A stretch of 15,273 bases of DNA. Origin: Thermoproteota archaeon. Lineage in GTDB: Archaea > Korarchaeota > Korarchaeia > Korarchaeales > Korarchaeaceae. Position numbers and translations under genes: made by a program. The notes below the pieces were generated by a model, which did not search any database, was not told the origin of the DNA, and saw nothing but the letters and a program-made list of their open reading frames with translations. Location of the stretch: NCBI GenBank assembly GCA_027491415.1, contig JAOZFH010000040.1:1-15273 (forward strand), written 5' to 3'. This document shows positions 2,276-12,585 of the stretch, piece by piece (within the stretch, counting starts at the first letter, position 1; each line of letters starts with the position of its first letter).

Positions 2276-2980
2276 TTAAGTTTCGCCGCTGCCCCGGGGC
2301 TCGACTAGCGGCACTATCCGCTCCATCACGTACCTCACGAAGTTCTCTACCTCAGTGGCCGTGAACACCGTCACCACGCAGTTTCGCGTTACCCCCACCG
2401 TTAGGCCCCACTCTCTGTCCTCGAACACCACGTACCAGATCTTCCCGTGTTTGAGGTACTCTTGGTATAGGTTAGTGTCCGCCAAGGCCTCCCCGAACAG
2501 GGAGAGCTTCCTTATGTTGGGCAGGTCCACCTGGTCGAAGTACACCACCTTCGCGGCCTCCGGGTTGGATTCGTGGAGCTCCCTGAGGGTCTCGTGGGAT
2601 ATTTTGGCCTCCACTATCCCTCCCGAGCCCAGCAGAAGAGCGTTGGAGAGGAGAGACGCTGCGGCGTTTGCCTTGGGTCTCTTCGCCAAGATCAGCAGCA
2701 TGGGCCCGCTATCAGTCCAGAACATGATGAAAGGGATCACTCGGGCCGAGACCTCGTACCTGACCCCTTCCCTACCGAAGAGGGGTACCAGGTACTCCTC
2801 GTACAGCTCCCCCCAGACCTCCGCCTCCCTGACGGTCTTCACATCCACCTGAGTCCTGAGCGTGAACTCCTCACCCCCGTGGGCCACGGACCGCTCCACC
2901 CTCCACCCCCTGAGCTTCTCCGCCGCGAGCTCCGGCGCCATGTCGCCTTCGACCCTGAAGATCTTCCCCACGAGAACCAT
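2276..2980 (-). CDS. Uncharacterised alpha/beta protein (234 aa)
   Basis: ATG start, normal composition, 68 bp from the divergent SMC start and co-oriented with the OB-AAA gene. It has conserved-looking segments (VVYFDQVDLPNIRKLSLFG..LADTNLYQEYLKHGKIWYVVF), but I cannot name a family. Confidence 0.8.
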   Translation of the reverse strand: MVLVGKIFRVEGDMAPELAAEKLRGWRVERSVAHGGEEFTLRTQVDVKTVREAEVWGELYEEYLVPLFGREGVRYEVSARVIPFIMFWTDSGPMLLILAKRPKANAAASLLSNALLLGSGGIVEAKISHETLRELHESNPEAAKVVYFDQVDLPNIRKLSLFGEALADTNLYQEYLKHGKIWYVVFEDREWGLTVGVTRNCVVTVFTATEVENFVRYVMERIVPLVEPRGSGET

Positions 2981-3048: not shown

Positions 3049-4773
3049 GTGGAAAGACTGGAGCCAGGCGGGACCTACATTAAGGAGGTGGTGCTGGAGA
3101 ACTTCATGTCTCATGAGTACTCAAGGATCCCGTTCAGACCTGGACTGAACCTTATCGCGGGCCCGAACGGGGCCGGGAAGTCGTCCATCGTCTTGGCAAT
3201 AGCCGTGGCGCTGGGTCAGACGAGAACCGAGAGGTCCAAGAGGCTCAGGGACCTGATCAGGAGAGGTCGAGACCTCTCGAGGGTCACCGTGGTATTTGAC
3301 AACAGCCCCGTTGAGGGGAGGCGGCCGATCCCGTGGTTCAGGGAGGACGAGATAAGGGTCTCTCGGTACATCCGAGCGGACGGAACCTACTGGTTTGAGC
3401 TGAACTACAGGACGGTCGACAAGTACGAGCTGACCAGCAGGCTGGCCAAGATGGGAATAGACCCGGACAACATGCTCGTCATCATGCACCAGGGTACCAT
3501 GGCGGAGTTCATCTCGATGAGCCCCACCGAGAGGCTGGTCATGGTTGAGGAGGCGGCCGGGCTCCACGAGTACAGAGAGAGGGTACTCCGGGCCATGAGG
3601 AAGATGGCCGGAGTCGAAGAAGAAGTCTCGAAGACCCAAGATCTCCTCAGGAGAGCTGAGGAGACCCTTGGGATTTGGAAGGCCAGGTACGAGAGGCTCT
3701 TGGAGAGGAGGAGGCTCGAAGAGAGGGCCGCAGAGTTGAGGGCAGAACTCGCCTGGGCAAAGTATGAGAGGCAGAGGGAGTTCATGAATCAGCTGGAGGT
3801 CGAGCTGGAGTCGACCGAGTCGGAGGTTGGGGAGGTAGAGAGCCAGATTGCCCGGCTGAGCGAGGTCCTCGCAAGGCTGGAGGAGGACTTCCGTGCGGTG
3901 GGCTCCACGCCCTCCGCTGGGGAGTGGAGCGAGGTGTGGAAGAGGATCCTCGACCTGCACGAGCGGATAGTGGACTCGGCGGTTCGGCAGGCCATACTGG
4001 AGTACAGGCTCAGGGAGCTCAGAGCTGCCGCCTCGCGCCTCCGAAGTAAGCTTAAGAGGGCGAGATCTGAGCTGGAGAAGCTGGAGGCCGAGGCGAAGTC
4101 GGTTGAGCGGCCCGCGGATCGGCTGAGGGATCCGGACGAGATCCTGGAGGAATTCAGATTGGTCGGAGCCCGGCTGGCGTCGCTCGGAGACGTCTCCGAC
4201 GATGTCGAGAGGATGTACCACCGTTACCTCCAGACCTACAAAGAGATCCGGGAGAGGCTCAATCGGCTGGAGGAGAACAGAAGGGAAATACTGGAGGCCC
4301 TCCAGGAGAGGGCCGAGTTCTGGAGGCGCGCCGTGAGGAGGCTCGTGTCTGAGGTCGACGAGGAGTTTCGGGAGATCCTCGGCAGGCTGGGCGGGGTCGG
4401 GTACGTCCGGCTGGTCGACGGAGAGGAGGTTGAGTCTGCAGGCCTCGAGGTGGGCGCGGGGTTCAGGGGGATGGACCCCGTTCCGCTGGAGTCCAGAGCG
4501 CTGAGCGGCGGTGAGAGGGCCACCACCGTTGTGGCGTTCATGCTGAGCCTGCAGAGGCACGTCAAGTCTCCGATTAGGATCATCGACGAGTTCGACGTTC
4601 ACATGGATCCCGCGCGCAGGGAGGTGGCTCTCAGGGAGTTCGCCAGGGTCCTGTCCCAAGCCGGTGGGCAGAGCATCCTCGTCACGCCAGGACCTCCTCC
4701 GAGGGTCGAGGGTCCGGTTCACCTCGTGTTCGTCCAGAGAGTCGGGGAAGCCTCCAGGGTGGCTGGAGCATGA
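3049..4773 (+). CDS. Short hinge-less SMC-family ATPase, SMC5/6-related (coalescin/ASRP-like)
   Basis: Motifs: IKEVVLENFMSHE, Walker A GPNGAGKSS, Q-loop IMHQG, a long coiled coil, signature LSGGE, Walker B/D-loop SPIRIIDEFDVHMD and H-loop position QSILVTP. It is 574 aa, with no hinge domain and no cysteine. Confidence 0.95.
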   Translation: MERLEPGGTYIKEVVLENFMSHEYSRIPFRPGLNLIAGPNGAGKSSIVLAIAVALGQTRTERSKRLRDLIRRGRDLSRVTVVFDNSPVEGRRPIPWFREDEIRVSRYIRADGTYWFELNYRTVDKYELTSRLAKMGIDPDNMLVIMHQGTMAEFISMSPTERLVMVEEAAGLHEYRERVLRAMRKMAGVEEEVSKTQDLLRRAEETLGIWKARYERLLERRRLEERAAELRAELAWAKYERQREFMNQLEVELESTESEVGEVESQIARLSEVLARLEEDFRAVGSTPSAGEWSEVWKRILDLHERIVDSAVRQAILEYRLRELRAAASRLRSKLKRARSELEKLEAEAKSVERPADRLRDPDEILEEFRLVGARLASLGDVSDDVERMYHRYLQTYKEIRERLNRLEENRREILEALQERAEFWRRAVRRLVSEVDEEFREILGRLGGVGYVRLVDGEEVESAGLEVGAGFRGMDPVPLESRALSGGERATTVVAFMLSLQRHVKSPIRIIDEFDVHMDPARREVALREFARVLSQAGGQSILVTPGPPPRVEGPVHLVFVQRVGEASRVAGA

Positions 4774-5525
4774 GCAGGACCTCGAGGACCAGGAGGGAGC
4801 TATTCGAGAGGATTCTGGAGCTTGTGCGAGAGGTCTTCTCGGGCAGGGTGGATCCATTCGACGTGAACGTGGTTCAACTCGCCTCTAGGCTCAGGGAGGA
4901 ATTCCCACGCCTCAGAGGGTGGGACGAGATCAATCTCGACCTCGAGGCGATGATCGGACTGGCGGGAGTCGTCGAGAGGCAGGGGGAGTGGATCGAGCAC
5001 CGGGCCTCTCGACTCTTCGTAGACCCCCTCCTCGTCGCGCTGAAGGTCGAGGTCATGGACCTGAAAGAGCTGGCCAGGATGTTCCTCAGGGCGTGGAGAC
5101 CGATCGTAGAGGCCAGGGGCGTCACTCCCGCCTTCCTGGAGGCTGCCATCAGTTACTGGCTCGAACTCCCACCCGCCTCAGGGAGGGGGGAGGCGCTGCC
5201 GGAGCCCAGAGGGGAGCAGGACTTTGAGCCACTCTGGAAGGAGGAGGAATTCGAAAAGAGGCTGATGCTCGAGGCTAGACGCCTCCAAATGGCGCTCGAC
5301 GAAAGGGAGGGGGAGATCAGCTACTCAGACTATCTGAGAGGGAAAGATCCGTGGGATTCCGCAGAGCGAGCTTATTTGCTCAGCTTTCTGATCTCGGACG
5401 GCGTGGTGTCAGTCAGGCGGGACCCGGCTACCGGTGAGCTCTTCCTGGTTCGACCCCGCGGCTCAGGCGACTCCGCAGAGTCCGTCGTCACCTGGCTGGA
5501 CATCGGCGGTGAGGGTCATGGGTGA
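4770..5525 (+). CDS. Kleisin (ScpA/Nse4-like)
   Basis: ATGA overlap with the SMC stop. The N-terminal ILELVREVFSGRVDPFDVNVVQL resembles the ScpA 'g.iDpwdidi' motif. The C-terminal AYLLSFLISDGVVSVRRDPATGELFL resembles the kleisin C-terminal winged helix. A Pro/charged linker lies between them. Confidence 0.85.
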   Translation: MSRTSRTRRELFERILELVREVFSGRVDPFDVNVVQLASRLREEFPRLRGWDEINLDLEAMIGLAGVVERQGEWIEHRASRLFVDPLLVALKVEVMDLKELARMFLRAWRPIVEARGVTPAFLEAAISYWLELPPASGRGEALPEPRGEQDFEPLWKEEEFEKRLMLEARRLQMALDEREGEISYSDYLRGKDPWDSAERAYLLSFLISDGVVSVRRDPATGELFLVRPRGSGDSAESVVTWLDIGGEGHG

Positions 5526-6093
5526 GGCGGAGGGAGGGGGCTCGGAGGACCTCAGGCGGAAGGTCAGGAGGGCGGCCCACATGCTGCTCCTCAGGAGCCA
5601 CGCAAAGCCCGGGGTGAAAGGGTGGGAGCTCAAGAGGGCGCTGGGGAAGGACTACAAGGTGGCTCTCCGCTTGCTGAACGAGGAACTCGCCGACATCGGA
5701 TTTAGGATCGTCGCAAAGGCGCCGGACGGTCGGGACGCGAGTGAGGAAGAGTACGGAGAGGCCACCTTCTACGTGACGTTTAGGGAGCCCCCGGACTGGC
5801 CGGAGATAAGGGGGTCTGGGTGGAGGATAGATGAGCTGGCTGCGCTGGCGGCCTGCGTGGCCCTGATATCGGCGAAGGGAGGTCGAGCGAGTAGGGAGGA
5901 GCTGGAAGACCTGCTAAAGTCAAAGCTGCCGGAATGGAAGGTTCCCGGCATCCTGACTAGGCTGATCAGGGCCGGATATCTCTCCGAGACGGATGAGGGG
6001 GTCGAGGTCGGCTGGAGGACGCGCGTTGAGATAGATGTCGAGCACCTGCTTAGACTCCTCCTCGGGTCCCGCGGCGCCTCCGGCGAGCGATGA
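5518..6093 (+). CDS. Putative KITE subunit (tandem winged-helix, ScpB/Nse1/Nse3-like), 191 aa
   Basis: ATG 5518 has GGTGAGGG upstream and overlaps the kleisin end. Two WH-like units: GVKGWELKRALG..LRLLNEELADIGFRIV and LAALAACVALI..ASREELEDLL..ILTRLIRAGYL..VEVGWRTRVEI. Its place after SMC and kleisin supports the call. Confidence 0.72.
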   Translation: MGEAEGGGSEDLRRKVRRAAHMLLLRSHAKPGVKGWELKRALGKDYKVALRLLNEELADIGFRIVAKAPDGRDASEEEYGEATFYVTFREPPDWPEIRGSGWRIDELAALAACVALISAKGGRASREELEDLLKSKLPEWKVPGILTRLIRAGYLSETDEGVEVGWRTRVEIDVEHLLRLLLGSRGASGER

Positions 6094-8854
6094 AATCCAT
6101 TATAGCGTCGAGGAGGGAGATCTCGCTGCCCCCAGACTTTGCGAGGAGGTCCTCGGCGGCTCTGGGAGAGACGCCGGCCGCAAAGGCCAGGACGGCCAGC
6201 CTCCCGTGCGCTTCTACCAGGGCGGCCGTCTTCCTGAGTTCTAAGATTATCCTCCTCATCTTTCGTCGCGACCTAGACTTCAGGGCCTTCTCGGAGAGCG
6301 AGAGGGCCTGCTCCACAACGAGCTCTGGCTCGCGAGAGATGCCGAGGCGACGAGAACCGCACACTGGACACTCCGGCCGCGCGGGGAGTTCGTACGGCTC
6401 CACCTCTTCCACGTAACCCCCGCAGCTCAGGCAGGCCAGGGTGATCCTCTCCGTGAGGAGTCGGACCCTCAGTCTCTCCCTCCTGAGGAGCCTCCTCTTG
6501 TCGGGTGGGATCGACTCGAGCCTGAGCCTCATCCACCGCAGGGCGTCTCTGCAGACTGGGGTGGGCTCAGCCATTCTCCCCAGATTGACGAGTTCCCACT
6601 CTCCCGAGGTCAGGCGGTCGAGCACCTGCCTGGCCTTGGGGATAGACATGTCCCTCTCAAGAACATCCTTGACGGCCTGCCTGTAGACTGGGGTCCCCTC
6701 AAGACTTGCCATCAGCCTGTCCAGCACCGACGGGGTCACCTCGGCGTCCCTCGAGACGACCCCCATCTTCCTTGCGGCCTGAAGGAGCCTGAACCTGAAG
6801 TAGCCGCTCCTCTCTACGGCTGCTTTAAGAGTCTCCTCCACGTCGAGAGGCGGCGACTCGAGGGCCTCAGCCACAGAGTCGGGGGACACCAGGTGACCGG
6901 AGAGGTAGACCCTGTAGGGGTCCTCCGCTACTCCCACCGCCGCCCCCGTCTCCCGGGAGATCGCCTCCGCCAAGTACCTAGCGAGGGCTCTGTTGGCGAG
7001 CGTCCCGGCGTGGACGTGCACCACGACGGTCTCGCCCACGGCCTCGACCACGATCCTCCTGTGCGTGGGCACGGGCAGGACCCTCTCGGCGGTCTCGATA
7101 GTGGGCAGGAGCGCGGGGAAGACCGTTGACTCCGCTACCCCGTACTCCTCCGCGATCGCCCGAGTCACATCACCCCTGGAGCGACCGGAGGCTATCATCT
7201 CCTCAACCCTGGCCCTTATGAGCCCGACCTCCTGGGAGACGGACATGGGTACTGGTATCTCCTCTCCCAACCAGTGTGGGATGGCCCCCTCTGGGTCCGG
7301 GTCCCTGACCACGTAGACCCTATCCCTGAACACCTGAACTATTCTCCAGACCTCTCCAGCCATAATGAACTTGGATCCAGGCTCCCCCCTCTCGGCGACG
7401 AATGGCTCGTCCAAGGTCCCCACGGGCTCCTCGGTGTCCTGATCCACCACGAGGTAGGTCCTGACCTCAGGGATCATCGAGAGGTTCTCGAAGTAGTACG
7501 GATAGAGGGCCGCGAAACCTGGGCCTCTCCTGAAGGAGCCAGACTCTGAGGCGAGAACAGGGCTCCTAGGCAGACTCGCCAAGAACTTGACGAGATCCAT
7601 CAGCTCGCCGGGCTCCGTCCGCCTGTAGTTGTAGGCCCGCCTGATGACCCCAAGCGCCTCCTGGACCGCCCACTCCGGTTTCCACATTAGAAGGGCGACA
7701 AGCTCGTGGAGCAGGGCGTCATAGGGTTTCTCTGGAATCTTGACAGGCTCGAGCCTGTCCTGCAGGGCCCTGCTCCTAACGACCATGGACTCCAGAGCGT
7801 CGTCTGGAGTCATGACAATCACGACGCCCCTGCTGACCTCCCCAACCCTGTGGCCGCTCCTGCCCACCCTCTGTACAAGCCTCGTCGCCTGCCTGGGGCT
7901 CATGTACTGGACCACCAGGTCGACGTGGCCCACGTCTATGCCCAGCTCGAGGGAGCTCGTGGAGACCAGGGACCTCACCTGGCCTTCTCTGAGGGCCTGT
8001 TCGGCCGTTATCCTTGTCCTTGCGGTAAGAGACCCGTGGTGTACCCCCATGGCTAAGCTGGAGTCCCACATCCTCAGCCTGCTGCCGAGCACCTCGGCCA
8101 TCGACCTTGTGTTGGTGAAGATCAGCGTGGTCCTGGCCCCTTCTATGAGTTCTCTTATCCTTCTGAGCCTGGCCGCCACCTCTGGGGAGACGTAAAGCCT
8201 TCCCGCCAGCTTCTCGTCTCGAGGAGTGGGTTTTGGGTACTCGACGCTTACTTCTATGCGCTTCGCCGCAGAGACGTACGCGACGCGGGGGATTGGGGAC
8301 GAGCCCGCAAGGAAGCGGGCTACCTCCTTCGGCGACCCGACGGTCGCCGAAAGTCCCGCAATCTGGGGGTGTCCGCCCGCCAGCACCTTGAGCCGTTCTA
8401 GAGCCAGAGCTAGCTGAGCTCCCCTCTTGCTCTCCGCCAGTTCATGAACCTCATCCACGATCAGGTACTTCACCGAGGTCAGGTGCTGACGGAACTTCCT
8501 CGCCACCAACAGTATCTGGAGCGTCTCTGGCGTTGTAACTAGTATATCGGGCGGCCTGGCCAGCTGAGCCCTCCGCTCTATGTCCGGGGTGTCTCCGTGG
8601 CGAACTCCAACAGTTAAATCAAGGCGAGAGGCCCACCACGATATCCTGAGCATGAGGTCCCGATTCAGAGCCCTTAACGGGGTCACGTAGAGAAGCCGAA
8701 TGCCCCCTGCCCTTGGGTCGTCCATGAGCCTCGACAGCATAGGGAGCAGGGCTGCCTCGGTCTTGCCCGTCCCTGTAGGGGCTATTAGGAGGACGTTCTC
8801 CCCCCTCATGAGTATTGGGATCGCCCTCTCCTGTGGCTCCGTGGGCCTCAACAT
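6050..8854 (-). CDS. lhr: Lhr-family ATP-dependent DNA helicase (SF2) with C-terminal Zn finger
   Basis: Motifs APTGTGKT, PLRALNRD, TTPETL, DEVH, SAT, HHGSL, TSSLELGIDVG, QRVGRSGH, IPHWLGE and C-terminal CLSC..CPVC. Conserved N-terminal sequence probably extends to ~8913-8916 (see findings). The 3' end overlaps the KITE gene by 44 nt. Confidence 0.95.
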   Translation of the reverse strand: MLRPTEPQERAIPILMRGENVLLIAPTGTGKTEAALLPMLSRLMDDPRAGGIRLLYVTPLRALNRDLMLRISWWASRLDLTVGVRHGDTPDIERRAQLARPPDILVTTPETLQILLVARKFRQHLTSVKYLIVDEVHELAESKRGAQLALALERLKVLAGGHPQIAGLSATVGSPKEVARFLAGSSPIPRVAYVSAAKRIEVSVEYPKPTPRDEKLAGRLYVSPEVAARLRRIRELIEGARTTLIFTNTRSMAEVLGSRLRMWDSSLAMGVHHGSLTARTRITAEQALREGQVRSLVSTSSLELGIDVGHVDLVVQYMSPRQATRLVQRVGRSGHRVGEVSRGVVIVMTPDDALESMVVRSRALQDRLEPVKIPEKPYDALLHELVALLMWKPEWAVQEALGVIRRAYNYRRTEPGELMDLVKFLASLPRSPVLASESGSFRRGPGFAALYPYYFENLSMIPEVRTYLVVDQDTEEPVGTLDEPFVAERGEPGSKFIMAGEVWRIVQVFRDRVYVVRDPDPEGAIPHWLGEEIPVPMSVSQEVGLIRARVEEMIASGRSRGDVTRAIAEEYGVAESTVFPALLPTIETAERVLPVPTHRRIVVEAVGETVVVHVHAGTLANRALARYLAEAISRETGAAVGVAEDPYRVYLSGHLVSPDSVAEALESPPLDVEETLKAAVERSGYFRFRLLQAARKMGVVSRDAEVTPSVLDRLMASLEGTPVYRQAVKDVLERDMSIPKARQVLDRLTSGEWELVNLGRMAEPTPVCRDALRWMRLRLESIPPDKRRLLRRERLRVRLLTERITLACLSCGGYVEEVEPYELPARPECPVCGSRRLGISREPELVVEQALSLSEKALKSRSRRKMRRIILELRKTAALVEAHGRLAVLAFAAGVSPRAAEDLLAKSGGSEISLLDAIMDFIARRRRRGTRGGV

Positions 8855-11781: not shown

Positions 11782-12585
11782 ATGGAGGGTAGCGACCTCG
11801 ATGAGCAGCAGGTGAAAAAGGCCCTCCTGAAGCTCAGCGAAAAGTATCTGCTAGGCGACATTGAGAAGGACGAGTACGAGTCCCTGAAGGCTAAGCTTGA
11901 GTCGGCCCTCAGCCTGATCAGGCTGAGGGAAAATCTTGAGAGAGGAGAGATTGGGCTGGACGAGTATGAGGCCGTTGCGGCTGAGCTGGAGAAGAAGACT
12001 GAGGGGGTAGAGGATGTCGTGGCGGAGCTGCTGAGGGAGGAGACCGAGCAGCCTGCTCCAAAGCCCATTGCAGAGTCGCCGAGCGCCGAATCTCCCGCCC
12101 CCATTCCAGTCAGAGTTGACGTCCAGCCTAGGGGCATCGCGGCCCCGCCGGAGGCTCCGGGAAAGGGAGTCCCCGAAGAGGAGGTCAAGGGACTCCTGGA
12201 CGTGGTTCAGGATATGCTTTCACAGCTGGAGGATCTCGATTTCAAGAGGAAGAAGCTCAGAGACCTTCTAGTGAAGGGAGAAATATCGGATGACACGTTC
12301 GTCGACCTCTATCAAGACCTCAGAAGCCTTAGAGAGGAATTGATAAAGAGGCTGGAGGAGAAGAGGTCAGAGCTTGAAGAAGAGCTCGTGGAGTCCAAGA
12401 AGGCCATTAGAGAGATGGAGCGGGAGCTGGAGGTGCTCCGCGCCAAGGCGGCGCTGGGTCAAATATCAGACATTGAGTACGAAACAAGGAGAGAAAAGAT
12501 TGAGGAGAGTCTGACTCGACTTCGGGCGAATATGGAGACCGTTCAGAAGGCCCTCTCGATAATGGGGGTAGGAGAGGGAGAGTGA
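11782..12585 (+). CDS. CdvA-like coiled-coil protein with four SHOCT-like 'G-x-I-x-x-x-x-Y/F' helical hairpin motifs
   Basis: GGTGA RBS. Repeats: LLGDIEKDEY, ERGEIGLDEY, VKGEISDDTF and ALGQISDIEY. A Pro-rich linker (QPAPKP..PAPIPV..PPEAPG) separates the pairs. By my recollection the C-terminal ~110 aa match the pattern of the CdvA coiled-coil domain. No PRC barrel. Confidence 0.6.
   Translation: MEGSDLDEQQVKKALLKLSEKYLLGDIEKDEYESLKAKLESALSLIRLRENLERGEIGLDEYEAVAAELEKKTEGVEDVVAELLREETEQPAPKPIAESPSAESPAPIPVRVDVQPRGIAAPPEAPGKGVPEEEVKGLLDVVQDMLSQLEDLDFKRKKLRDLLVKGEISDDTFVDLYQDLRSLREELIKRLEEKRSELEEELVESKKAIREMERELEVLRAKAALGQISDIEYETRREKIEESLTRLRANMETVQKALSIMGVGEGE

Follow-up and report, generated by a model that had tools for sequence, protein, structure and literature searches.

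A naturally hinge-less SMC protein in an archaeal SMC5/6-related operon

Many TACK and Asgard archaea carry two SMC operons, one related to condensin and cohesin and one related to SMC5/6; the latter also encodes a kleisin related to Nse4 and a kite of the Nse1/3-like type (van Hooff et al., bioRxiv 10.1101/2024.01.07.573240). The name "SMC5/6-related aSMC" comes from Yoshinaga and Inagaki (2021; 10.1101/2021.05.15.444277 / PMC8665677). The accessible main texts of both studies use the word "hinge" solely with reference to canonical SMC or within reference lists, and they do not mention short arms. Literature searches found no paper on hinge loss in the archaeal SMC5/6-related family, with supplementary files, which may bear on the point, outside their scope. 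Outside this family, "hinge-less" SMC homologues with SMC-type heads, an antiparallel coiled coil and no CxxC are known from marine Actinobacteria (PMC12153180); the available part of that report names no partner genes and suggests no affinity to SMC5/6. Here we analyse a stretch of 15,273 nucleotides from a Thermoproteota archaeon of the Korarchaeaceae (assembly GCA_027491415.1, contig JAOZFH010000040.1; hereafter the window), in which an SMC gene at 3049-4773 encodes P0001, a protein of 574 residues with neither hinge nor zinc hook. The operon family to which it belongs is already published; the hinge-less, short-armed build has apparently not been described in print, as far as the literature could be searched. 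What is new is a head-domain tree that indicates one loss of the hinge, a hinge-bearing sister clade and a nested sub-branch with CxxC hooks.

P0001 is a member of the SMC superfamily, in which the ATP-binding cassette (ABC) head is split in two, Walker A and the Q-loop lying in the N-terminal half and the signature, Walker B, D-loop and H-loop in the C-terminal half, with an antiparallel coiled coil between the halves. The gene and its parts are as follows:

3049..4773, forward strand: hinge-less, hook-less SMC-superfamily ATPase (P0001), 574 residues, by Pfam, NCBIfam and PDB matches
3049..3564, forward strand: N-terminal half of the ATPase head, residues 1-172, by an alignment of 121 sequences and the AlphaFold2 model
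3160-3183, forward strand: Walker A motif GPNGAGKS, residues 38-45, with G38 to S45 invariant in the 121 sequences
3565..3900, forward strand: ascending arm helix, residues 173-284, by AlphaFold2 secondary structure
3901..3924, forward strand: apex loop GSTPSAGE, residues 285-292, at the usual hinge or hook site, by sequence and AlphaFold2
3925..4098, forward strand: distal part of the descending arm helix, residues 293-350, by AlphaFold2
4099..4200, forward strand: SMC joint, made of a break (351-361), a short helix (362-379) and a second break (380-384), by AlphaFold2, Foldseek match to 5xei and conservation
4201..4386, forward strand: head-proximal part (neck) of the descending arm helix, residues 385-446, by AlphaFold2
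4387..4770, forward strand: C-terminal half of the head, residues 447-574, with the signature LSGGE (485-489), Walker B D513 and E514 and the H-loop H518

The head has all its catalytic motifs intact. Besides Walker A, the Q-loop residue Q148, S486, G487 and E489 of the signature, D513 and E514 in the Walker B stretch (residues 511-516) and H518 are invariant across the 121 sequences. Pfam SMC_N matches at 104 bits against a cut-off of 40, and Pfam SMC_hinge gives no match to the protein. The top NCBIfam model is that of archaeal SMC, SMC_prok_A (TIGR02169), at 230 bits and below its cut-off of 729; the arcadin-4 model scores lower and is likewise below cut-off. Among PDB sequences, Pyrococcus Smc heads come first (8e-35), followed by yeast Smc5 and Smc6 at about 1e-28.

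An earlier note on this DNA had described a protein of about half the canonical SMC length, free of Cys and hence unable to form a CxxC hook, whose coiled coil breaks at residue 285 of 574, where the arm should fold back. Each of these observations is borne out. The translation contains 0 Cys and 7 Trp, and in the AlphaFold2 model (121-row alignment; mean predicted local distance difference test score, pLDDT, 88.4) the coiled-coil hairpin turns at the protein midpoint through an 8-residue loop, 285-292; GSTPSAGEWSEVW begins at residue 285 (nt 3901-3939). Each strand of the arm is about 110 residues long, which gives a calculated length of roughly 16 nm at ~0.15 nm per residue. P0001 is naturally without hinge and zinc hook, and the same holds across the short family: no CxxC occurs in any of the 124 proteins searched, the 120 listed relatives among them, and 23 of the 121 aligned sequences are free of Cys altogether. 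The turn region ranges from 40 to 142 residues in the relatives' alignment and varies in sequence as well as length, with no conserved motif found there. WxxxW, whose conservation among homologues the note had proposed to check, was rejected as a family motif, as it occurs in 3 of the 121 aligned sequences, namely P0001 and its two nearest relatives.

The second break in the coiled coil (ERPADRLRDPDE begins at residue 353 and LGDVSDD at 379) had been read as either a joint or an elbow. Of the two, the joint stands and the elbow falls, because the top Foldseek match of P0001 is 5xei (E 2.8e-23, TMq 0.62, TMt 0.68), an engineered Pyrococcus (P. yayanosii) "Smc head domain with a coiled coil and joint", and because the joint residues G353, P362, E364, L379, D381, V382, S383, M389, Y390 and Y393 show conservation of 90% or more among the relatives.

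The P0001 gene leads a set of three coupled genes, with those for an Nse4-like kleisin and a putative Nse1/3-like kite behind it:

4770..5525, forward strand: Nse4-like kleisin (P0002), 251 residues, by profile A2, AlphaFold2, Foldseek and conserved position
5518..6093, forward strand: putative Nse1/3-like kite, 191 residues, by profile A3, Pfam MAGE (E 0.1) and conserved position

The kleisin ATG overlaps the SMC stop codon (ATGA), and the kite ATG sits 8 nt within the end of the kleisin gene. Membership of the published SMC5/6-related SMC-kleisin-kite operon had escaped the earlier note. Profile A2, built from 57 proteins in the kleisin position, matched human EID3 (2.2e-4) and yeast Nse4 (2.8e-4) in the PDB, both at the C-terminal winged helix, and the ScpA N-terminus at E 0.036. 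The AlphaFold2 model of P0002 (pLDDT 74) pairs a helical domain at the N-terminus with a winged helix at the C-terminus, and of its ten best Foldseek rows nine belong to kleisin chains (Brn1, RAD21, Nse4, ScpA-C and Scc1-C; E 1.6e-3 to 2.8e-2). For the kite, profile A3 (54 proteins in the kite position) reached the MAGE-domain protein 7dg2_C at 9.1e-4 and Nse1 at 0.083-0.11.

The arrangement is widely conserved. We surveyed 78 related loci from named archaeal metagenome-assembled genomes of Korarchaeia-like Thermoproteota, Methanodesulfokora, Hadarchaeota, Caldarchaeales/Aigarchaeota, Nitrososphaeria and Geothermarchaeota, in which neighbours were sought by tblastn. A kleisin homologue lies downstream of the SMC in 74 loci, and in the remaining four the DNA runs out no more than 230 nt past the SMC match. 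A kite homologue was found in 72; in five of the six loci lacking a match little sequence remains, and in the sixth (L085) ~900 nt contain none.

The same genome holds a second SMC set on another contig (L087:3737-7014), comprising a hinge-bearing Smc, a 220-residue open reading frame (ORF) and ScpB (9.2e-23). The second Smc (L087:3737-6013) has 758-793 residues and an SMC_hinge match at E 2.4e-15, so that this set is a short-armed yet hinge-bearing condensin-type complex. The 220-residue ORF has no Pfam match and is presumed to be ScpA. Two SMC sets in one genome fit the published two-complex pattern (10.1101/2024.01.07.573240). Proteins of ~830 residues with SMC_hinge, similar to the second Smc, also occur among the representatives (P0315, P0330).

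The evolutionary placement of P0001 was examined in a tree built from head domains only (81 rows, LG+C20+F+G4 with posterior mean site frequencies, PMSF). The rows were picked as representatives of each group from 129 sequences, 125 that passed motif anchoring and 4 relatives of P0298, and Rad50 of the same genome served as outgroup. Support is given as ultrafast bootstrap/Shimodaira-Hasegawa-like approximate likelihood ratio test (SH-aLRT):

46 tips, 100/95: short forms and zinc-hook forms
51 tips, 97/89: short forms, zinc-hook forms and the P0298 hinge clade
62 tips, 99/95: the 51-tip clade, eukaryotic SMC5/SMC6 and P0307
6 tips, 99/90: zinc-hook forms and the short P0255/P0256/P0261

In this tree the P0001 head groups with eukaryotic SMC5/SMC6 and not with condensin-type SMC; canonical SMC, including the genome's own hinge-bearing Smc, falls outside the 62-tip clade. 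Quick trees on 125 and on 81 rows agree with the careful one. The hinge-less range covers Korarchaeia-like, Hadarchaeota, Caldarchaeales, Nitrososphaeria and Bathyarchaeia genomes.

Hinge-bearing homologues close to P0001, which would have spoken for a local deletion, were not encountered: the hinge appears only in the sister clade of P0298, which is 30-32% identical to P0001. P0298 (982 residues) and P0307 (928 residues) have a globular middle. That of P0298 has SMC_hinge as its top Pfam match, below cut-off (17.6 bits, E 0.005), and no meaningful PDB match by sequence. The call of a hinge in this clade is based not on P0298's own score but on its four relatives (54-58% identical to it in that middle part), all of which exceed the Pfam SMC_hinge cut-off with 23.9-26.3 bits.

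An exhaustive search of the representatives recovered the long members of the family, P0260 (1047 residues), P0271 (1028), P0288 (1016), P0125 (1040) and the partial P0304, and all five carry a C-x-x-C-G-S motif at the protein midpoint. Aligned with the short P0256, P0260 is 55% identical over residues 1-301 and 48% over 718-1033, and the gap between these segments places an insertion of ~416 residues exactly at the tip of the short form. The zinc-hook forms are nested among the short ones, which formed a single clade of their own in 0 of 200 bootstrap trees. The only full zinc-hook locus (L088:3417-6641) is flanked by a split gamma-glutamyltranspeptidase, an aminotransferase and other unrelated genes; neither profile A2 nor profile A3 matched beside the gene at this one locus (n=1).

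Since the P0298 sister clade and eukaryotic SMC5/SMC6 keep the hinge, the tree indicates one hinge loss in the ancestor of the short clade and a later gain of a hooked extension in a nested sub-branch. The root and the direction of change at the apex depend on the outgroup and on the presence of a hinge in all outer groups. Outside the main hinge-less clade, P0314 (633 residues) and P0320 (628 residues) form a short SMC-like pair with no Pfam hinge match that branches near the base of the SMC5/6-side group, and for this reason the hinge may have been lost more than once.

Taken with the operon, these results make it probable that P0001 is the SMC subunit of an archaeal SMC5/6-related SMC-kleisin-kite complex that lost its hinge once and is held together by three contacts. 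SMC, kleisin (4770-5525) and kite (5518-6093) would be made from one translationally coupled operon, and two SMC copies would form a short rod or a small ring. The first contact would be ATP-driven engagement of the heads. In the second, the kleisin, with kites bound, would link one SMC at its neck to the other at its cap. The third would be parallel side-by-side packing of the distal arms (281-320) in place of the hinge. Family identity, the operon, the natural loss of the hinge and the intact motifs are shown by the present analysis, whereas the stoichiometry, the arm-arm contact and entrapment of DNA by such a complex are what we infer.

The third contact was modelled with two copies of arm residues 170-450 and the family alignment, in three runs and against three controls:

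3889..4008, forward strand: predicted parallel arm-arm seam, residues 281-320, by the dimer model and local conservation

The arm dimer scored an ipSAE of 0.62 in all three runs, whereas the controls gave 0.32, 0.00 and 0.00; contacts agreed between runs by at least 87%, with partner pLDDT at least 81. Of proteins solved as same-chain pairs, 20 of 30 reached this mark, compared with 1 of 23 among those solved as single chains. The predicted seam comprises W293, W297, I300, L301, H304, I307, V308, A311, V312, A315, I316, Y319 and R320. Confident symmetric parallel contacts are 300-300, 304-304, 308-308, 312-312, 315-315, 316-316 and 319-319, with further contacts in the model at 281, 284-285, 288-289, W293 and W297 and weak ones at 367 and 370. 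The prediction is of a distal four-helix packing beside the turn, with the descending helices side by side. An apex interface formed by the two Trp residues, as proposed in the earlier note, is partly matched in that W293 and W297 are among the modelled contacts; the geometry is parallel and side by side, not tip to tip. Calling such an interface undescribed went too far, because arm contacts are already known to help dimerise hinge-less B. subtilis Smc (PMC5526789).

The comparison of conservation used 49 rows of less than 80% identity. In the stretch 300-320, positions in contact are better conserved than the remainder (top-residue fraction 0.53 vs 0.34, one-sided p 0.012), and the seam contacts map on the family stretch "YV..RV..AVL.FR". 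We regard the chances for and against this parallel distal arm contact as an element of dimerisation as about even. The model backs binding without demonstrating it, and dimerisation through the arm tips is putative.

A broader reading, which we put forward tentatively and hold to be somewhat doubtful, is that in the lineage sister to eukaryotic SMC5/6 the SMC apex is a replaceable module. The hinge, lost once, would have given way to a minimal parallel four-helix packing of the distal arms (281-320), and a hooked extension of ~416 residues would later have been inserted at the tip in one nested sub-branch. Were this true, and were the hinge-less complex still to entrap DNA or translocate on it, core SMC function would not require the hinge, and an arm of 16 nm would suffice.

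Several points count against the proposed complex and its arm contact. None of the kleisin matches of P0002 in Foldseek reaches E 1e-3, and the kite assignment is built on weak scores (E 9e-4, 0.08 and 0.1). The long branches of Rad50, P0229, P0307 and P0362 are flagged as unsure in the tree. Over the whole arm, contact residues are not more conserved than the rest (0.52 vs 0.53, p 0.42), and the conserved positions in 300-320 could equally be the core of the intramolecular coiled coil. The apex is variable in sequence and length, with WxxxW confined to the three sequences named above. Since the arm was modelled cut from its heads and SMC structures in the rod state have been solved, the passing score may reflect learned likeness. 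Among engineered proteins, a short-armed "Mini-Smc" of B. subtilis was non-functional (PMC5526789), and hinge-less yeast Smc5 and Smc6 sub-complexes showed no detectable interaction without ATP (PMC8327961).

The main rival to the arm contact draws on some of the same observations. In it the arm tips stay apart, nothing but ATP-engaged heads and the kleisin-kite module connects the SMC copies, the complex is an open clamp whose sole closed compartment lies between heads and kleisin, and the modelled contact is an artefact. The unconserved apex, the lack of enrichment over the whole arm and the ATP dependence of the yeast sub-complexes all favour it, as does the tendency of dimer modelling to lay chains side by side whether they bind or not. 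Set against this, the dimer score is reproducible and at least 0.30 above each of the three controls, no gaps interrupt the family alignment at 304-320, where the contact positions are the conserved ones, and in B. subtilis side-by-side arm contacts help hinge-less Smc to dimerise (PMC5526789). On balance we hold closure by heads and kleisin alone to be unlikely, albeit a serious competitor to the arm contact.

Far less probable is that P0001 is a kleisin-independent SMC-like protein of the ASRP/ClsN, Rad50, RecN or LmuB kind, acting as a stand-alone DNA bridge or defence sensor. Its size and short arms presumably resemble those of RecN. They are also like those of LmuB (~650 residues, arms ~20 nm; PMC10586767), and PADLOC models for LmuB (86.6 bits) and mad3 (125.7 bits) and the NCBIfam model for ASRP (89 bits) match it. 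All of these scores are nevertheless below the 230 bits of SMC_prok_A, and the NCBIfam ones lie far under their cut-offs (ASRP 300; Rad50 models at most 103 bits against 700-1087; RecN, TIGR00634, 27 bits against 408). Zinc hooks are present in the vast majority of ASRPs (PMC9389158), whereas P0001 has no Cys. Its neighbours are a kleisin and a putative kite and not Mre11 or LmuA/LmuC, and the head tree puts it with SMC5/6. Membership of ASRP, Rad50, RecN, LmuB or JetC was rejected on scores far below cut-offs or generic and on the absence of the partners; so was membership of Lamassu or Wadjet, as the PADLOC matches of P0001 (LmuB 86.6, JetC 48 bits) cover the generic head only and four neighbours have no PADLOC match.

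The least credible explanation of all is that the hinge was lost locally, through an assembly deletion, gene truncation or pseudogene decay. Nothing was found in its favour beyond a length about half that of canonical SMC, and it can in practice be set aside, given invariant ATPase motifs, conserved operon partners and the following comparisons. An independent public contig (record 1, 2831 nt, 91% identical) spans 3049-4773 with 149 substitutions and 0 gaps, which settles the assembly question raised in the earlier note. Orthologues at 97%, 93% and 79% identity each have 574 residues, and the 120 relatives listed in a search of proteins of 315-1005 residues are all 543-666 residues long. These three results together exclude an assembly deletion. 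Among proteins of at least 1006 residues, P0125 alone scores 432 bits, the others at most 133 bits. Public runs matching the locus comprise two DNA contig runs from one study, with a small word share, and no RNA run is listed.

Two neighbours of the operon recur at its flanks:

2276..2980, reverse strand: divergent neighbour (P0004), 234 residues, family-less, conserved in position
6050..8854, reverse strand: Lhr-type helicase, 934 residues, convergent to the operon, by Pfam DEAD, Helicase_C, WH_Lhr and DEAD_assoc

P0004 is separated from the SMC gene by a spacer of 68 nt and transcribed away from it. A homologue stands divergently at the same position in 21 of the 78 loci, in several lineages and at 34-95% identity, with 28 invariant residues in the 21-row alignment, and P0004 may be a fourth component of the complex. 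It has no match in Pfam, NCBIfam, PADLOC or a PDB profile search; an Atlas search returned unnamed clusters and leads below 0.85 (CENP-L, RdgC) that we do not trust. An Lhr homologue is found in the same place and on the same strand in at least 39 of the 78 loci, at 31-93% identity (mostly 40-48%), a count that is a lower bound because many loci are cut short. Kinship to SMC5/6 and this conserved helicase neighbour, which points to a DNA-repair setting, together hint at a possible role in DNA repair or maintenance.

Beyond P0004, on the reverse strand, lie a 425-residue protein (994-2271) that matches AAA weakly (E 0.0017) and, next to it, a 131-residue ORF (602-997). The 425-residue protein recurs in 4 of the 78 loci, all from close relatives, and is probably not part of the module for that reason. 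Elsewhere in the window, a 267-residue ORF (11782-12585, forward strand) contains a SHOCT-like stretch and has a sub-threshold match to GvpG, gas vesicle protein G (28.5 bits against a cut-off of 30.6).

The hinge is regarded as one of the defining elements of SMC complexes, both for dimerisation and as a site of DNA binding or a gate. Here is a whole clade of archaeal SMC-kleisin-kite complexes without it and with arms one third of the normal length, and the family offers a natural test of whether a hinge is needed. P0001, being small, thermostable and free of Cys, suits site-specific cross-linking, and natural comparisons are at hand in its hinge-bearing sister clade and in the zinc-hook forms nested within its own clade.

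Among described systems, the closest are the archaeal SMC5/6-related complexes, with which P0001 shares the three-gene operon, a TACK-type host that also has a condensin-type Smc-ScpAB set, and a head that groups with eukaryotic SMC5/6; there is no difference in kind, and the P0001 operon is a member of that group. Canonical SMC (TIGR02169/TIGR02168; Smc-ScpAB) shares the joint near the head and differs in its central hinge, which P0001 lacks. Rad50, ASRP/ClsN and RecN resemble P0001 as coiled-coil ABC ATPases without a hinge, and a CxxC at the protein midpoint occurs in a sub-branch of P0001's own clade (P0125, P0260, P0271, P0288); P0001 itself differs in having no Cys, in its partners, a kleisin and a putative kite, and in scores far under the cut-offs of those families. 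The hinge-less SMC of marine Actinobacteria share heads, antiparallel coiled coil and the absence of hinge and CxxC (PMC12153180); they are bacterial environmental sequences, and the likeness is one of description only. P0001 superposes best on the engineered head, coiled coil and joint of the P. yayanosii construct 5xei. This construct and those of B. subtilis are laboratory truncations, whereas P0001 is a natural form conserved over several archaeal lineages. In eukaryotic Smc5/6, two long-armed subunits are joined by their hinges, with Nse2 on the Smc5 arm and Nse5/6 as further components. The archaeal operon resembles the eukaryotic Smc5/Smc6-Nse4-Nse1/Nse3 assembly in head sequence (~1e-28), in the type of kleisin, probably in that of the kite, and in its sister placement in the tree, and differs from it in that the eukaryotic complex is a heterodimer of ~1,100-residue proteins, whereas the archaeal operon has one SMC gene, for a hinge-less protein of 574 residues.

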